Shown: piece by piece, positions 8,556 through 57,790 of the stretch
Layout: the number at the start of each line of letters is the position of its first letter
How positions within the stretch are numbered: position 1 is the first letter of the stretch
Source of the DNA: Octopus sinensis
Taxonomy: Eukaryota
Reading direction: 5' to 3'
NCBI RefSeq assembly: GCF_006345805.1
Contig: NC_043001.1
Coordinates: forward strand, 119,412,001 to 119,476,000
DNA: 64,000 nucleotides
Program-made: the position numbers and the translations under genes
The notes under the pieces: generated by a model
Database searches by the model: none
The model's input: the letters and a program-made list of their open reading frames with translations, nothing else
What the model was told of the DNA's origin: nothing

Positions 8556-8801
8556 GAATACAAAGGAGTAACAGAGAGAGAGAGGAGAAATGGGAAGACA
8601 GGAAAAGACGTCAACAAGAAACTATGGCATTACAACCAGCCAGGAACAGTCTTCGCTACATTTGCAGTACCTGCCAGAGGGAGTGTTTGTCCAGGATAGG
8701 ACTACACAGCCACAGCAGGAAATGTATCAGGACATGAAATGTAAAAGCCGGACTAGACTACTTTATGCGCAACTCCATTGTCTCCCGAGACAAAAGGATG
8801 C

Positions 8802-8807
<6 letters not shown>
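8556..8807 (+). mobile_element. 5'-truncated 3' end of the RTE LINE (second copy)
   Basis: About 250 bp matching 11912-12190. Encodes YICSTCQRECLSRIGLHSHSRKC and ends with a TGTCTC-CC-GAGACA stem-loop and a short CAA tail. Confidence 0.92.
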
Positions 8808-8859
<52 letters not shown>

Positions 8860-8873
8860 ATTATATATATATG

Positions 8874-8910
<37 letters not shown>

Positions 8911-8933
8911 TATATATATATGTATATATATAT

Positions 8934-11900
8934 AAAGTCAAGAAAACACCAGTTCTGCGGTTGGCAAGCTGGAATGTCAGGATCATGTGTCCTGGAATAT
9001 CTGATGATCTTCTCAGGATTGAAGACACAAGGAAAACGGCCATCATTGACCGTGAACTAAAGAGGCTCAACATAGATATTGCTGGGCTGCAGGAGAAAAG
9101 ACTTGCCTCAAACGGCAAACTCAAAGAGCAGGACTTCACCTTCTTTTGGCAGGGAAGAGATCCAGAAGAACCTCGTCAACATGGCGTTGGCTTTGCAGTG
9201 AGAAACTCACTACTCTCCTCAATAGAACCACCATCGGGAGGCACTGAGCGTATCCTCTCACTCCGCCTCTCGACTTCTTCTGGCTCAGTACATCTACTCA
9301 GTATCTATGCCCCCACTCTCTACAGCTCAGAGGAGACCAAGGACCAGTTCTACAAAGATCTCAACTGTGTCATAGAAAATATACCAACGACTGAAAATAT
9401 CTACCTTCTAGGGGATTTTAACGCTCGCGTGGGATCTGACCATGATTCGTGGCCCATTTGTGTTGGACACTTTGGTATTGGCAACATGAATGACAATGGT
9501 CAGAGACTACTCGAATTCTGCACATACCATAACAAGCCATCCCACAAGGCATCTTGGAGACATCCAAGTTCTCACCACTGGCATCAGCTGGATCTCATCA
9601 TTACACGGAGATCCTTTCTGAATTCTACTCTATTGACCCGCAGTTACCACAGCGCGGATTGTGACACAGACCACTCACTAATTAGAAGCAGGGTGAGGAT
9701 TCTGCCTAAAAAAGTCCATCGCTCCAAGGAAGTGGGCCGCCCACGCATCAACACCTCCAGAACCTCGGACCCTACACTGCGAAAATGTTTTGCTGCTTCT
9801 ATCAAGATTGCCCTCAGTAGCTGCCCAACCTCCTCTGCTGGAAGTAGGTGGGACTATATCAGGGAAGCCTTGTATACGACATCATTGGATACTTTCGGCA
9901 TGAGAGAAAGGCAAAACCCAGATTGGTTCAATGCTGGGCTCTCAGAGCTAGAGCCAGTTATTGAAGCAAAGCGTGTAGCTCTGATGCAATACAAGAGTGA
10001 CTCTTCTACAAAGTCACTCGAAGAACTCAGAAAGGCACGAAATAAAACCCAACTGACAGCCAGACGCTGTGCAAATAGGTATTGGCAGGAAATCTGTCAG
10101 AGTATCCAGTCAGCTGCTGACAGGGCCGACACCCGTGGGATGTATGCCGGTTTGAAGAAGGCCCTCGGTCCATCCGCAACCAAGTCAGCCCCTCTGAAAT
10201 CAACTACTGGAGATCTCATCAGGGATCAAGGCAAGCAAATGGATAGATGGGTGGAGCACTACCAGGATCTCTACTCACGGGAGACCACAGTGGCTGAGGC
10301 TGCAGTCGAGAGTGTCAAGATCTTGCCAGTCATGTGCGAACTTGACAGTCCGCCATCTATAGCAGAGCTCACCAAGGCTGTTGACTCCTTAGTAGCAAGA
10401 AATAAGGCTCCGGGAAAAGACGGCATCCCCTCAGAGATCATCAAAGCCGGCAAAAACACCATCCTGCTTCGGCACCTTCATGAGCTTCTGTGTCAGTGCT
10501 GGGAGGAGGGTACAGTCCCTCAGTATATGCGGGATGCCAACATCATTACGCTCTACAAAAACAAAGGTGACCGTGGTGATTGTAACAATTACCGTGGCAT
10601 ATCCCTTCTAAGCACTGTTGGAAAGACCTTTGCCCGCGTTATCCTGGCCAGGCTACAACTACTTGCTTCTCGAATCTATCCGGAATCGCAGTGTGGCTTT
10701 AGAAGAAGCAGATCAACTATCGATATGATATTCTCCATACGCCAACTTCAGGAGAAGTCCAGAGAGCAGAAAATGCCATTATATATGGCCTTCATTGGTC
10801 TAACAAATGCTTTTGACTCGGTAAGCAGAACAAGCCTCTTCCTTCTGCTCCAAAAAATCGGATGTCCACCAAAGCTGCTGAGGATCATCAAGTCTTTCCA
10901 TGATGACATGCAAGGCACCATACAGCACAACGGTTCAACATCAGTCGCCTTCCAAATAAAAAACGGGGTAAAGCAAGGCTGTGCCTGTGCTCCTACATTA
11001 TTTGGCATCTTCTTCTCACTCTTACTTTCACATGCCTTTCAGACATCAGATGATGGAGTGTTTCTGCACAGTAGAAGTGACGGGAAACTGTTCAATCTCT
11101 CGCGCCTGCGTGCCAAGACCAAAATCAGAAACGTCCTGATCAAGGAGATGTTATTTGCTGATGATGCCGCTCTGGTAACACACACAGAAGAAGCCCTCCA
11201 AAGGCTCATTAACTGTTTTGAGCAAGCATGTAACGACTTTGGCTTAGCTATCAGCCTTAAGAAGACCAACATCATGGGCCAGGCTACATCGGTCATCCCA
11301 AACATACATATTGGAGACCACAGATTACAAGAGGTGGAGAAGTTTACCTATCTGGGCTCTACCGTCACCTACAACCTATCCCTTGACGCTGAGCTCAATA
11401 TACGCATTGGCAAGGCAGCTACTGCGATGGCCCAGCTCTCCAAAGGGGCTTGGGACAATAATAAGCTGACCAAGACCACGAAAATGAAGATTACCAGGCA
11501 TGTGTACTCAGCACTCTACTGTATGGAAGCGAGACTGGACGCTATACACACGCCAAGAGCGTCGCCTAAACATCTTTCACCTGCGCTGCCTCCGAAAAAT
11601 CCTCCGCATCAAGTAGCAGAATCATATCCCCAACAAAGATGTCCTCAGGCAAGCAGGAATACCAAGCATGTTTGCACTCCTCACACAAAGACGTATGAGA
11701 TGGCTTGGGCATGTTAGCCGTATGAAAGATGGCAGAATTCCCAAGGACATACTCTACGGAGAACTTGCTAGGGGTACTAGGTCTGTGGATAGACCGATCT
11801 TACGTTACAGGGATGTTTGCAAAAGGGATATGAAGGCCTGCAACATCAATATTAGCGGTTGGGAGGCAGTTGCCGGCAACCGTGGAGAATGGCGACGTAC

Positions 11901-11949
11901 AGTAAAAGAGGGAATACAAAGGAGTGACAGAGAGAGAGAGGAGAAATGA
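8934..11949 (+). pseudogene. RTE endonuclease-reverse transcriptase ORF (disabled)
   Basis: APE motifs LASWNVR, GLQE, GVGFAV, IYAPT, LGDFNARVG, LDLII and DTDH. RT motifs KAPGKDGIP, NYRGISLLS, ESQCGFR, GVKQG, FADD and FTYLGS. Lesions: AFIGLTNAFD instead of AFIDLTKAFD, a deletion of about 10 aa after CTYHN, a frameshift near 11490-11515 (continued by ORF 11668-11949, RWLGHVSRM) and a premature TGA at 11947-11949. Confidence 0.93.
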
Positions 11950-12190
11950 AAAGAAAGGAAGAGACGTAAACAAGAGACTATGGCACTACAACCAGCCAGG
12001 AACAGTCTTCGCTACATTTTCGGTACCTGCCAGAGGGAGGGTTTGTCCAGGATAGGACTACACAGCCACAGCAGGAAATGTATCAGGACATGAAATATAA
12101 AAGCCGGACTAGACTACAAAAAAAAACAAAAAAAAAAACATGCGCAACTCCATTGTCTCCCGAGACAGAAAGGATGCCAATACAATACAA
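8934..12190 (+). mobile_element. RTE-clade non-LTR retrotransposon, near full length, 5' UTR missing
   Basis: Single APE-endonuclease plus RT ORF, a short 3' UTR with a stem-loop and (TACAA) tail, embedded in (TA)n. Confidence 0.95.
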
Positions 12191-12250
12191 ATATATATAT
12201 ATGTATATATGTATATATATATATATATATTATATATATATATATATATA

Positions 12251-13030
12251 CACTATCTGAGAGAGATCTTCTTTAAGTATTAGAAATAGCTGAAGAAATT
12301 TCTTTAGCTGCTATTTCTAATGAGTTCAGTATGTGGCAAAGTAATTTATTTTACTAAGCCCTTATATATAATGTAATATTTTGAATTCGCCTATAATGGT
12401 CCCTTTACATACTGAATACTTGGTGAAATTGATTAATAATTAATTAATTTTACCCTCAATTGTTGAAATTATAATTCATCTCTCTCTGCTAAATGCTGCG
12501 GTTTTCACCGTTAATACATGGTGTTTGTCAATTTTAACCCACGCTGGTGGAAAAGGGAGAGCAGAAATTCTTCGCTTGCATATTCGAATTTGATAGCACT
12601 TTTAGTTCGAGCAGAATTCTAGAGGTGATTAGAAGCCGAAAGGGTATGCTCCCGACTTTCAGTGTTCCCAAATCCGATTCAAGGAATTCTGAGCTGAAGA
12701 AAGAAATGTCGAATTGACTAATCTAGAAACGTACGTTCTCAAATAACCTTTGCACTTGATTTTTTAATGTTTTTTCCCCCATACTTTTGTGAGTTGGTTT
12801 AGGCAAACACTATCTGAGAGACATCTTCTTTAAGTATTAGAAATAGCTGAAGAAATTTCTTTAGCTGCTATTTCTAATGAGTTCAGTATGTGGCAAAGTA
12901 ATTTATTTTACTAAGCCCTTATATATAATGTAATATTTTGAATTCGCCTATAATGGTCCCTTTACATACTGAATACTTGGTGAAATTGATTAATAATTAA
13001 TTAATTTTACCCTCAATTGTTGAAATTATA
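12251..13030 (+). mobile_element. Non-coding HHR-bearing element, 1.4 copies of a 557-bp unit (retrozyme/PLE pseudo-LTR-like, family B)
   Basis: 223-bp direct repeats at 12251-12473 and 12808-13030 (one visible substitution), an HHR between them, and (TA)n on both sides. Confidence 0.85.
12690..12741 (+). ncRNA. Type-I hammerhead ribozyme
   Basis: TGAG-CTGAAGA-A-AGA(aatGTCgaattGACtaa)TCT-A-GAA-ACGTACGT-T-CTCA: intact CUGANGA and GAAA, stem I TGAG/CTCA, palindromic stem III. Confidence 0.8.
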
Positions 13031-13149
13031 TATATATATATATATCCTCTATCCCCAGTCCAAAACTTGTTCACTTGGCATGTATGCCCGTACACTTCTA
13101 TATTGTCAATATTATTCTATTTCTTTTTGACCAATGTGCTCTGGAAAGT

Positions 13150-13970
13150 ACTTGGTATACGTTTTTTTTTTTTTTATCCAGTCTAGTGAAATGAATCCTC
13201 AACTCTATCTCTTCAGCCTTTGCCAGTGTGGTTCTATTGAACTCTTCATGGTCACCTTGTCCTGCAATCTAAAGCTGATAATCGGACGCACATTTCCTAT
13301 GCAGAAACAGTAAACTGAGTTGAGATAAAGCTGCCAGATTTCACGTGCATGTAGACCGGAAGTGACTACTACTGTTTGATAAACTTTGATTTTCGTTTTT
13401 AGTCTGGCGTTTTTGTGGCTCAGCACACGTAACCCTTGTAACTAACTTTACTTAAACATGTAGCTATCTCCTTGTCAAGAGAAGAGCGCCGTTGAAAGGG
13501 ATAACACTTCCCAGATTATTAAAATAATCAACGATGTTGAGGTTCGTGCCCTCTATGCGAAACTTTGAGGGGGCAGCTTTGTAGTTCACGTAGCATGTTT
13601 GTTGAGGAATTCTACTTTGCTGAGACTAATTGTAAGTCTACAGAATTCAGTGTCAAGGGAGAGAACTTCTAAAATTTCATTCGACCAATAATTAAATCAT
13701 ATACTGGAATACTGACTCTGATCTTTGGTTGCTACAGTGACAACGTCGGACATGTTTATGTGTCATTGTACTTTCTAAGTGAAGAACATATTGAGTACAA
13801 ATATACCTGGTCACTGAACGACTTCATATGTATATAGTTTTGGTGTGAAGAAATTTCACTGATTAAGCAATTCAGAATAAAAATGACATTGGAAAATTTC
13901 CCAAAGGTACTTTCTGCATGAAGAGCATGTAGTGCTTGACGTGGTGAGCCGAAAATAATTTTAATCAATT
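13150..13970 (-). pseudogene. Old RTE-like RT fragment
   Basis: Minus-strand remnants LKTKIKVYQTVV...W.LY...IISFRLQDKVT, NIVDYFNNLGSVI and LTISLSK. Confidence 0.7.
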
Positions 13971-14234
13971 GAAATTATAACCATAATGGGGAGAAAATTC
14001 ATTAGCGTTAATGAAAAATATTCTCACAGGGGGCACTATGCCTATGTGTGTGTGTGTGTATGTACGTATGTATGTTGTAGCAAGCAAGATATCGCATACC
14101 AACCATAAATTATTGAAAAATCAATATCCAAGAATCGTGTTCTTATTAGTAATGCAAAAATTATCGACATTCTCTTACTTGTTCCTAGTATGTATGTGCG
14201 TCTGGGTGACTGATTGATATATATACACACACAC

Positions 14235-15369: not shown

Positions 15370-17810
15370 AGATGGAAAACAAAACTTGCAGAAAACATCA
15401 ACGACGTGCGCCGCCATATTGGATGGTTAACTACAAGAATAAAATGTAAGGAGAAAAATGAGTTTACGCCTCACCAACTCTACCTTGGACAACAATTAAC
15501 GAAACTTTATGGAAACTCTTCGCACCGAGCTCTTTGAAACATGAACTCAGGACGATGAGCGGGAAATTCCGCTATCGCAAGCAAATTTTCGAGCGAGCCA
15601 GTATCAATTGCAAGTTTGCTTTCAACCCACAAGCATTATACAGGCAGATGAAGAAGGAAAATGCTACCATTGAGAAAGCTCCCTCCCAAGATCTACAATT
15701 TGAACCGAAAAGAGGGATTTCAACCTGAATGCATCATGTTAAATACAATTGAGAAAGAATAGTGTACCAACACTAAGAGTAAAATATACAAAATTGATGC
15801 AGAAACTTTCGCTAGAGCAGTAGGTATAAACCGCAGAATGGGAAGGCACCTGGAAGTGACCTAATAGTTGGATATTGATACAAGAAGCTGACATTTTATA
15901 GAAACCAATTGATATGTATGTTCAAAAGGACTATGGAAGGTAAGGCTGATATACTAATTAGCTTGCTACAGCAAGGACAAATCTTGTTGCCAAAAATGAA
16001 ATCACCGAAATGGCAGGAAATTACAGGCCTATTGCTTGCTTAAACATTAGGTACAAACTGTACATAAGCTGCCTCAACCAATTCCTCCAGGACCATTGTG
16101 AGTCGAACAACATTGTGACTGATGAACAGGCTGGTGGAAAGACGGAAGTGTGGGGATGTGCTGAACAACTTTTAATAAGCAAAGCTGGACTGTCTGAAGT
16201 AAGAAAACAACGCAGAAACCTTGTGACAGTATGGCTTGACTCTGTCCCTCATTCATGGCTCTTGAAATACCTACATCTGGCAAAAGTACCTACTACCTTA
16301 ATTGCTGTTATAGAGAGACTCACAAAGACATGGACAACTATTCTTACCCTTACAACTGAGAATAGAATAATTGTTTCTAATAGTATAAGCATTACAAAGG
16401 GAATATTCCAGGGAGATAGTGTTTCTGTACTTCTTTTCATTTTGGCACTGAATCCATTATTGTTCCTACTGCAGAAAACAAATGGTTGCATGCTAAGATC
16501 TTCAACTGCCAGAAATATCAATGCAACTCATAATTTCTTTGGAAACGACCTGAAGATTTATACTAAAAATGTTAACAATACAAAAAAAAAACAAAAACAA
16601 CTGAAATTAATAACATTTTCAGCTGATATAGGTATGGAAGTTCGCCTAAAGAAATGTTCATATTTGGTTAAAGAACGAGGAAAGTCAGTCCCCTAAACCC
16701 AAAACCTGTGCATAAACGGTTTCTCTATCTCCCCTATTCCACACAAAGAATGTTACAAGTACCTGGGCATAGATGAAAAGGTATCATATAAAGGCACTGT
16801 GAATAAAGATAGAGCGACCCGAGAATATTACACCAGACTTAGGAAAATATGGCAGTCGGAACTCTCCTCTTACAACAAAACAATGGTATCACTCAGGCAG
16901 CACCTGCTAAACAAAAGCAGCAAATATAAATATATTAATTCAGTCCTGAAAAGTGGAGTGAGCAACATTGTACGAATTGGCCGTGAACTCCTCAAGAAAC
17001 ACTCTCTTCCTGATGATCCTGATGATACAGCCCCAAAACAGCTGGGCTCTCTTACCTCAGAGAAGACCTGGATGGAAAGTAATCAGCATACAAAAAAGAC
17101 GATGCGTGGGTATGCTGCCCGGAAGCTTGAAGAAGACAACAGAATTGACCCGAAACGAGCCTCTCTTGAACACAAGACCACAACATCACATCACAATTTC
17201 AAGGCTATGTGTTTGCAATCCAGGAACAGGAGACTGCCACAAAGTACCTGGTGAACAAGAGAGGCAGTGACGCTATTGTGATCCCAAGGTGCAACCGCAT
17301 GTGTAGGCTATGTTATGTTCTGTGGAAGACATTACGCATGTGATTAGCAGCAGTCCTAAAATGTCGTCCGGTACTACCTCCCTATTCAGCGCGATGAGGG
17401 GCCAAGGTGTATACCATCATAGAGGTCAGCTATCCTTAGATATAAATATCTCTTTGAAAATCAAAGAAAAAGAAGATATCTATGGAGAACTGCTTCGAAA
17501 CCTCCAGCTTCTATATCCAGACTATGAATTCATATTCATACCAATAATAATTGGAGCACTAGGTTTTGTTAGTAAATGTCTAAAGGAGAATCTGGATAAA
17601 ATGAGATTTTCAGAAAGTGAAATTGGCCGGCTGATTCGTACATTACAAATACAATCTGTGAGTGGAACAGTAAAAATATGCAAGACCTTTCTGAAGTTCC
17701 AAATGTGAATTTGTCTGTGTTAACTACATCGCAATGATGGAGCCTTGGGTCTAAGTTAGAAATTGGTTCATTCTCTATTCGCAAGAAATCTTGAAATAAA
17801 CTGAATAATG
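15370..17810 (+). mobile_element. R4/Dong-like RLE non-LTR retrotransposon, decayed
   Basis: RT motifs GNYRPIACLN, DEQAGG, WLDSVPHSW, KGIFQGDS and YKYLGI; zinc-knuckle remnant CRLC..EDITHVISS; C-terminal KEDIYGELLRNLQLLYP...FIPIIIGALG. Many stops and frameshifts. The 3' end abuts (TACA)n. Confidence 0.88.
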
Positions 17811-33838: not shown

Positions 33839-33889
33839 CTTAACTGATGAGGCGACGAAAATGGCCGAAACTGACACGTCATTATTAAG
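33839..33889 (+). ncRNA. Type-I hammerhead ribozyme
   Basis: CTTAA-CTGATGA-GGC gacgaaaatg GCC-GAA-ACTGAC ac GTCATT-A-TTAAG; predicted cleavage after 33884. Confidence 0.85.
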
Positions 33890-45339: not shown

Positions 45340-45381
<42 letters not shown>

Positions 45382-45383
<2 letters not shown>

Positions 45384-45758
45384 ATAATTGAGGGTAAAAT
45401 TAATTAGTTATTAATCAATTTCACCAAGTAGTGTTCAGTATGTAAAAGGACCATTTAAGGCATATTCAAAATATTACATTATATAATTAGGGCTTAGTAA
45501 AATAAATTACTTTGCCACATACTGAACTTTCTAGAAATAACAGCCAAAAAGTTTTTTAGCCATTTCCACTACTTTAAGAAAAATTCTCCCAGCTAATGTT
45601 ACTCAAAAATAAATAATATTTTTGAGTAAACATTAGCTGGGAGAATTTTTCTTAAAGTAGTGGAAATGGCTAAAAAAATTTTTGGCTGTTATTTCTAGAA
45701 AGTTCAGTATGTGGCAAAGTAATTTATTTTACTAAGCCCTAATTATATAATGTAATAT
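45382..45758. mobile_element. Family B terminal repeat in inverted (foldback) arrangement
   Basis: Homologous to 12251-12473. Arms at 45471-45611 and 45617-45758 are near-perfect reverse complements with a 5-nt loop. Flanked by (TA)n. Confidence 0.88.
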
Positions 45759-56839: not shown

Positions 56840-57790
56840 GAGCAACATTCTTTGTCTAATAACCTAGAATACATGCCTAAAGAAGTCGCATGACTACCGC
56901 AAGGTATCATCAAATGAAAGGACGAACCTATATGAGCAGAAGAAAATGCATGGATATGTTATTAGAAAGCTCCGTGATGATAGTAACATCGATTATCAAA
57001 GCAGTTTCTCATGAACCAATAGCCAGATTACTACCTCCCACTTTGAAGGGTATGCGTTTGCAATCCAGGAACAGGAAATATCAACCAAGTCCCTGATGCA
57101 CAAAAGGGACAGAGATGCAGGAAAAGTAGTGAAATGTGACGACCGATGCAGACTTTGTGGATTTCACGCTGAAGATATCACTCACATCAGAAGCAGTTGT
57201 CTGAAAATGTCATCACGGTATTATCTACCGATGAGACATGACGTTGTAGCTAGGACACCCTATAATGAAATCCGTCGGAAAGATAACCCCGAGGACAAAG
57301 AAATAAGAACCCACAGTATGTTAGAAGCCATAGCCACTCATAATAAAAAGGGGTCCTGGTGGAATGTCCAAGTGAAGACTTCAATAAAATGTCGGCACAA
57401 CAGACCTGATATAATGATTTGGGATGGAGAAGAGAAACTGTGCACAGTTGTGGAAATTAGCTGCCCAGAGGATGTTAACATAAAGCTGAAGATCAGTGAA
57501 AAAGAGAACATCTACGCTGGGCTATTGAGAAATGTACAGTTACTCTATCCAGATAACAAGTTCTGGTTTATACCTGTAATTATTGGGCCCTGGTATATGT
57601 AACACATTGCCTAAACACCAATCTTGAGAAATTAGGTTTCTCAAAACCAGAACGGAGAAAGCTAAGACTACAGATCAAATCCATCACTGGAACTAAATAT
57701 CTGTAAAACTTACCAGAAGATAATCATTTAAATATATATGAACAGCTCTAGATATGCAACTTCATATATGAGAATATATACATAAAGCAA
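56840..57790 (+). mobile_element. R4/Dong-like RLE element, 3' fragment
   Basis: FEGYAFAIQEQEI, a CRLCGFHAEDITHIRSSC zinc knuckle, RHD, and an RPDIMIWD...VVEISCP PD-(D/E)xK endonuclease motif; (TACA)n on both sides. Confidence 0.9.

Follow-up and report, generated by a model that had tools for sequence, protein, structure and literature searches.

How did a non-coding tandem of 1.4 units that carries a hammerhead ribozyme motif come to lie in a (TA)n tract of the Octopus sinensis genome, and what was the template from which it was copied? The window, that is, the whole stretch of 64,000 nucleotides analysed, holds one such insert, with the features below (positions are those of the window).

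12191..12250, no strand: left (TA)n target tract
12251..13030, plus strand: whole insertion, a single-arm copy of 780 nt, or 1.40 units; its outer (3') end is the long site of the family (unit 223) and its inner (5') end is unit 557/1
12251..12807, plus strand: one complete 557-nt non-coding unit
12279..12321, plus strand: conserved hairpin of the end region, which occurs a second time at 12836-12878
12325..12416, plus strand: long-range stem 12325-12334/12407-12416, which encloses the short priming site and has compensatory changes across families
12370..12381, plus strand: short (S) end site, U/A-rich, unit about 120-131, repeated at 12927-12938; not an end in the window copy
12681..12750, plus strand: type I hammerhead motif, predicted cleavage after 12737 (stem I 12690-93/12738-41; distal helix 12681-84/12747-50; core CTGAAGA 12694-700 and GAAA 12726-29; stem II with a 3x3 internal loop and A·A at its base; palindromic stem III)
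12808..13030, plus strand: second unit, partial (unit 1-223), with one mismatch to the first
13020..13030, plus strand: long (L) end site, unit 223, which runs into (TA)n; inferred start of reverse transcription in the window copy
13031..13045, no strand: right (TA)n target tract

The layout given in the preliminary description, which took the insert for a possible footprint of a reverse-transcribed circular RNA, holds throughout. The 223-bp direct repeats (12251-12473 and 12808-13030) are spaced by 557 and differ solely at 12265 (G) and 12822 (C), the hammerhead core said to lie intact between them is there (CTGAAGA at 12694, GAAA at 12726, predicted cut after 12737), and stem III is palindromic as claimed, through the self-complementary ACGTACGT at 12729-36. 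Likewise, the (TA)n tracts are present on both sides, the internal hairpin at 12279-12321 is present, and the reported lack of any ORF of 60 aa or more is borne out, the longest ATG-started ORF being 34 aa, also on the circularised unit; a 62-aa frame on the minus strand inside the insert runs from stop to stop. A circular RNA monomer made from this copy would run 12738-12807 and then 12251-12737. GC content is 0.345 (window 12001-14000). At position 12554 the window copy has A and 83 of 86 covering segments have G, a near-private change.

Several other readings of the insert were discarded. It is not part of the RTE-like LINE upstream (window 8757-12185, a 986-aa stop-to-stop frame with endonuclease and RT domains), which finishes in its own tail before the (TA)n; that tail runs into the same (TA)n that the retrozyme entered. 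Nor is it a pair of LTRs, as the 223-bp repeat belongs to the tandem, or the solo pLTR of an adjacent ORF, as each arm gives way to (TA)n or to the opposite arm. Chance or an assembly artefact is set aside by hundreds of copies, each with its own flanks. Elsewhere in the window, broken RT-like and restriction-endonuclease-like frames lie at 15962-17270 and 57015-57602, which we take to be probably fragments of another non-LTR element, and another CTGATGA...GAAA motif, with a different stem II and outside the retrozyme family, lies at 33844. A second insert, of a sister family, occupies 45374-45757; it is a head-to-head pair of the end region only, a minimal L+S pair in (TA)n with the long end at the left and the short end at the right.

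Judged from its sequence, the insert is one copy of a very young, genome-wide retrozyme family. A search of the genome (2.72 Gb) with the 557-nt unit gave 1,327 candidates, 38 of them scored, and 190 matches, which are 96-100% identical among the 150 listed. Because the exact 38-nt ribozyme core occurs 354 times genome-wide and its reversed control not once, and because the circularised unit folds to -143 kcal/mol (z = -5.8 against 40 shuffles), the motif is not a product of chance. Tandem arrays of up to 17 units are dispersed over many contigs, and private changes in the family of the window copy amount to about 0.15%. A relaxed core occurs about 3,600 times (control 2), the remainder being sister subfamilies that are about 78-94% alike and have periods of 540-560 nt. 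Two more distant families, with periods near 558 and 565 nt, share the end region. The four families are 65-90% alike and all have a period between 540 and 565 nt. The 558-bp tandem family (L113 8036-8335, L144, L139; 2,162 candidates) has two ends 100 nt apart, and no canonical hammerhead core was seen in the three copies inspected. The family of about 565 nt (L246, L250, L257; 2,384 candidates) combines a hammerhead whose stem II is much longer with the same pairing of long and short ends; some of its copies end in (TTA)n. No recorded RNA sequence was found to contain the unit. It is covered, mainly by sister families, in contigs of four sequencing runs presumed to be RNA; when depth is scaled to the adjacent LINE, the retrozyme is no deeper in these runs than in one probable DNA run, a result that speaks neither for nor against expression.

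Is the ribozyme likely to be active? The window copy has the family consensus. The register of the hammerhead is fixed, given that sister copies have U, A or C before the cut, and within the core the first 100 relaxed matches vary at position 7 (U, A or C) and keep the other positions. Across 14 variants the stems are paired in 95.7% of cells and three pairs are changed on both sides; one of 500 shuffles scored as high in covariation, a figure that is not a probability because the rows are related. An Rfam search returned no hammerhead match on the insert at E<=10, and for the whole window it returned microsatellite matches only, among 150 of 279 matches listed. The 10.1-11.1 pair is an A·A mismatch, replaced by U·U at the stem II base in most sister copies, the cleavage triplet is GUU, and stem III has 2 bp. 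A repair of stem II in cis was considered and rejected, the 3x3 internal loop and the basal mismatch being kept across families. In the circle the hammerhead fold is predicted to lie 3.5 kcal/mol above the best fold, with a predicted stem I occupancy of ~1%; the palindrome of stem III would allow a dimer duplex of -13.0 kcal/mol. By this modelling self-cleavage is plausible, and activity probably needs a dimer. The axolotl ribozyme HHR_Amex2, which has U·U at the base of stem II, shows weak cleavage in monomeric form and stronger cleavage as a dimer (PMC7229834); 8 of 9 Xenopus retrozyme dimers are without cleavage in vitro (bioRxiv 10.64898/2026.07.22.740005).

We are highly confident that the element is a retrozyme. 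Its short, dispersed head-to-tail units with one type I hammerhead each, non-coding, low in GC and devoid of LTRs, are those of non-LTR retrozymes; the plant-type LTR retrozyme, with a type III hammerhead in both LTRs, does not fit a type I motif outside the 223-bp repeats. The accessible parts of PMC7229834 and bioRxiv 10.64898/2026.07.22.740005 describe, for metazoan non-LTR retrozymes, the same tandem non-coding units of low GC with one type I hammerhead and a short stem III, a mismatch at the base of helix II (U·U in HHR_Amex2), coexisting Penelope-like elements and a proposed copying of circles into tandem cDNA. Retrozyme circles are reported there for coral, mussel and axolotl (PMC7229834), and Penelope enzymes acting on circular templates have already been proposed for retrozymes (PMC7229834; bioRxiv 10.64898/2026.07.22.740005). 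The octopus unit of 557 nt is longer than the 170-400 nt of PMC7229834 and within the 51-972 nt of bioRxiv 10.64898/2026.07.22.740005; 24 of 57 Xenopus families match known elements (bioRxiv 10.64898/2026.07.22.740005), whereas here a homologous autonomous pLTR was absent from the about 50 Penelope-like loci examined. Those accounts demonstrate circles and cleavage, which in the octopus family are predicted from sequence; in contrast, insertion ends, inverted arms and priming sites are mapped here and not described in the parts of PMC7229834 and bioRxiv 10.64898/2026.07.22.740005 available. The element is real and of a kind already described, and its mechanistic footprints are unusually clear. 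In the titles and abstract openings of the open literature we found none on paired start sites or overlapping multi-unit retrozyme arms; supplements may bear on this.

These footprints lie in the insertion ends, which can be counted because the family is young, abundant and short. We analysed 69 loci of the window copy's subfamily, 35 from score-selected unit matches and 34 from the first 100 exact-core places; L033, which represents the L031 locus on another contig, was omitted, and the parse of L227 was corrected by hand so as to drop a neighbouring sister insert. Loci were picked for the ribozyme core or a near-full unit, so that the selection itself ensures one crossing of the cut per locus; target-site duplications are unreadable in (TA)n. 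In 112 of 118 arms the outer (3') end falls at one of just two sites: L (51 arms), at unit 223, and S (61 arms), at unit about 120-137 (about 129), separated by about 94 nt. They nearly always run into (TA)n. Inner (5') ends are scattered round the unit across the 69 loci. Single arms make up 20 loci (14 S, 5 L, 1 other; the window copy is an L arm) and head-to-head pairs the other 49, five of which have one non-standard end. In the remaining 44 pairs the two ends are L+S in 43, S+S in one and L+L in none (P = 5e-12 at even odds). Likewise, 16 pairs among 20 loci of sister subfamilies comprise 15 L+S and 1 L+L, and the two distant families, whose loci were picked by their L end, gave L+S in 6 of 9 (3 non-standard) and 5 of 5. 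The 49 inversion junctions show overlaps of 1-11 nt in 34 cases, are blunt in 7 and have extra bases in 8; all of them differ, and therefore progeny do not copy the junction of a parent. Arm lengths are uncorrelated (Spearman -0.01, n=43). Inner ends avoid unit 227-284 (window 12477-12534), with 1 of 112 arms there, and 2 in a 56-nt bin against about 11 expected; the same stretch holds most of the lineage variants.

The preliminary description had held that circularly permuted starts would support a circular template and that fixed ends common to all copies would speak against one. The 5' ends are indeed spread round the unit, and the 3' ends are not, being fixed at two sites; as a case against a circle, however, fixed ends were ill chosen, because Penelope-type target-primed reverse transcription fixes 3' ends on circular and linear RNA alike. 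We regard such Penelope-type priming at two sites as quite probable. The region that holds both end sites is the best-kept part of the unit (about 90% against 84%). Across 18 sequences its predicted fold is paired in 88.9% of cells, and 18 cells are changed on both sides, a number that 0 of 500 shuffles reach; counted by pairs, 5 show changes on both sides, which is not above shuffles. The long-range stem 12325-12334/12407-12416 (helix 3) is paired in 100% of cells and has two pairs with changes on both sides. Going by these alignments, the structured end region may be the binding signal of the enzyme.

A question remains, was the template a circle? In 47 of the 49 head-to-head loci the two arms sum to more than 557 nt, and in 13 both arms exceed it; the S site is passed by 42 of 46 L arms. 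The arms therefore overlap on the template. Longer than one unit are 67 of 112 arms, and the cut site is crossed at least once by 97 of 112, partly by selection, and at least twice by 51. The preliminary description ascribed the partial tandem to a reverse transcriptase that either went around a 557-nt circle or jumped on a monomer. Its origin by reverse transcription on a template that repeats past one unit is upheld by the scattered 5' ends and the 51 arms with at least two crossings, which a circle and an uncleaved multimer would give alike; the jump on a monomer is disfavoured. That the template was a cleaved linear monomer, with the reverse transcriptase reaching its 5' end and jumping to a 3' end, either of that monomer or of a different one, would account for mixed units within one array, through jumps between molecules, and for loci that begin at the cut right after (TA)n: genome-wide, (TA)n lies within 4 nt of the cut at 6 loci, 2 of which start at the cut itself. 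Against it, 192 passes show no scar, with no indel at unit 484-491; inner ends at 486-492 number 3 against 1.5 expected, no excess of stops. With the selection for the ribozyme removed, a 17-mer just 3' of the cut continues across it in 3,293 of 3,516 copies genome-wide, so that at most 6.3% stop short, partly through mutation. Because the cut is crossed without a scar, stops show no excess there and most copies continue, a cleaved linear monomer was not the usual template, and we consider this reading extremely unlikely.

A harder rival keeps the same enzyme and the priming at two sites, and makes the template an uncleaved read-through transcript, linear or an oligomeric circle, of a long tandem array; the hammerhead would then cleave rarely or merely free the RNA from its flanks. 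Variation among units bears on this. Of 126 lineage-marker cases, 109 extend over the whole array, and 80 of 88 are found on both arms; distances within arrays are 3.2 against 7.4 between arrays, and the pattern of unit variants is identical in two contigs of one locus. Private variants are confined to part of the array in 21 cases, which favours a multimer or later exchange in DNA, against 12 found array-wide, 6 of these on both arms, which favour the circle. Variants recurring with a period of 2 to 4, or only in both terminal units (L035, L038, L031, L119), also speak for a multimer, as a single monomer circle could yield them only if conversion or duplication followed; the period is 3 in L031, 2 in L038 and 4 in L119-L120, which would reflect oligomeric templates or later segmental duplication. 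Variants common to both terminal units or to same-ranked units of both arms (T50G in L035, C7G in L119/L120, A391G in L039) point the same way. Conversion between units could yield either variant pattern, and assembly polishing may blur both. The weak features of the ribozyme (GUU site, A·A at the stem II base, 2-bp stem III), the finding that unprocessed RNA is the main substrate in vitro (PMC11167929) and the existence of arrays of 12-17 units as possible sources further suit a multimer. On the other hand, a multimer would offer many L and S sites, so that pairs of like ends (L/L or S/S) should occur, short of the dimer binding a single unit; 1 of 44 was seen. No junction or start of a parent is re-copied among the 49 distinct junctions, and pairs with identical 5' ends number 8 in the pattern-listed subset, where 5.8 are expected, and 17 overall, where 11 are expected. 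Moreover, the constant period of 540-565 nt across four families 65-90% alike suggests a size-limited monomer. Weighing these points, we consider the multimer rather unlikely, and a circular template, set against a linear multimer, appears favoured.

Could the arrays instead have grown in DNA? In that case the reverse transcriptase would copy short pieces, and arrays and inverted arms would arise later by unequal crossing-over, fold-back or gene conversion. The periodic variant blocks of the longest arrays (L031, L038, L119) do resemble segmental duplication, and in the parts of the sources available, self-priming has been proposed for inverted pLTRs (PMC3846280) and local amplification for vertebrate retrozyme tandems (bioRxiv 10.64898/2026.07.22.740005). 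Both outer ends, however, are starts of reverse transcription in (TA)n and of unlike types, which fold-back would not select; arm lengths do not correlate, the junctions carry short microhomology and are not hairpin tips, and 67 of 112 arms are longer than one unit despite private changes of about 0.15%. Later growth in DNA may explain part of the longest arrays; as a general account it is very improbable.

The account that we prefer is that the RNA was likely self-cleaved into a 557-nt circle and that a Penelope-type reverse transcriptase, beginning at two fixed internal sites, likely copied it into (TA)n; taken as a whole we hold this account to be reasonably likely. Under this scheme tandem copies would be transcribed, their hammerheads would cleave, probably as dimers, and a host ligase would close the monomer. 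A dimer of a reverse transcriptase-endonuclease would bind the structured end region (unit about 25-223) and nick both (TA)n strands, whose two 3' ends would prime at the U/A-rich S and L sites of one RNA. Both reverse transcriptases would then circle the template, displace cDNA and stop at random, and the two cDNAs would join via microhomology of 1-11 nt into a head-to-head insert. Alternatively, one cDNA would join the target directly and leave a single arm, such as the 1.4-mer of the window. That both enzymes of one dimer roll at once on a single circular RNA from the two fixed sites, each displacing the cDNA of the other, so that multi-unit head-to-head arrays are born in one event, we propose tentatively, at a little less than an even chance. 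If true, double rolling-circle twin priming would have genomic evidence behind it, the Penelope 'tail at one end' would be explained, and a structured RNA signal would be defined, common to four or more retrozyme families that have no look-alike autonomous element. In LINE-1 twin priming, two target strands prime one RNA and give a head-to-head insert with a microhomology join. The twin-primed arms of LINE-1 cover non-overlapping parts of one linear RNA, whereas the retrozyme arms overlap and each may be multi-unit. The ends described here bear on how retrozymes move and on how the tandem, inverted and tailed inserts of Penelope elements originate: each DNA strand has its own start site, two in all, and the template is read repeatedly. 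With its defined RNA of 557 nt, its covarying end structure and its (TA)n target, the family also lends itself to asking in vitro whether Penelope enzymes copy circles and which site each subunit uses.

How close are these insertions to those of Penelope-like elements? They share the anatomy of partial tandem, inverted arm, tail at one end and microsatellite target. In an anole Penelope element both strands are cut and extended, the enzyme is predicted to be dimeric, the tail is the stretch between two internal starts of reverse transcription, and hammerhead cleavage is not needed for insertion in vitro (PMC11167929). Inverted arms and an optional tail at one end are described for Penelope-like elements in the available parts of PMC3846280 and PMC8557442. 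Neptune and Poseidon elements are alike, as far as the consulted portions of PMC11167929, PMC3846280 and PMC8557442 extend, in partial tandems, an inverted 5'-truncated arm, an optional tail, two internal starts, an AT-rich or microsatellite target and a hammerhead near the end. Unlike them, the retrozyme is without an ORF and has a tail of about 94 nt against 30-40, and its end sites are paired near-strictly across arms, where in the same portions the Penelope tail is only 'often at one end'. At both retrozyme end sites there is TA microhomology to the target; the start of the anole element, in contrast, is at a site without such homology (PMC11167929).

An ORF with RT and GIY-YIG domains is not attached to the repeat, which places it outside the autonomous Penelope-like elements and solo pLTRs. 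Likewise, no arm is attached to a Penelope ORF, and the Penelope fragments close to four loci are separated from the arms by (TA)n or other DNA. An end-region profile run over loci L071-L118 and L196-L215 found no autonomous element with the shared end region in about 50 Penelope-like loci (150 of 5,029 GIY-YIG candidates scored), and following the two diverged end-region families led only to further non-coding families. The genome does contain a young Neptune-like family with a 781-aa frame carrying RT and GIY-YIG, its copies about 98-100% alike and targeted to (TA)n; the clade was assigned from the zinc-linker motif, by comparison with the available part of PMC8557442. Several older Neptune-like families are also present. 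The young element at L101 2732-6153 has a tandem period of 5,934 bp and 1,022 candidates. The 3' end of the youngest family is unlike that of the retrozyme, and in the 2 inverted copies observed the two arms end alike. A second Neptune-like family (L111 5532) and an adjoining short motif (L108 7021) have hammerheads mismatched or wobbled at the stem II base, which in the L111 family is U·U, as in retrozymes. Hammerhead-like motifs with U3-A8 replacing C3-G8 were seen in L101, L060 (3620-3655), L207 (6327) and L200 (3704), and in L101 and L060 they lie about 100 nt from the 3' end.
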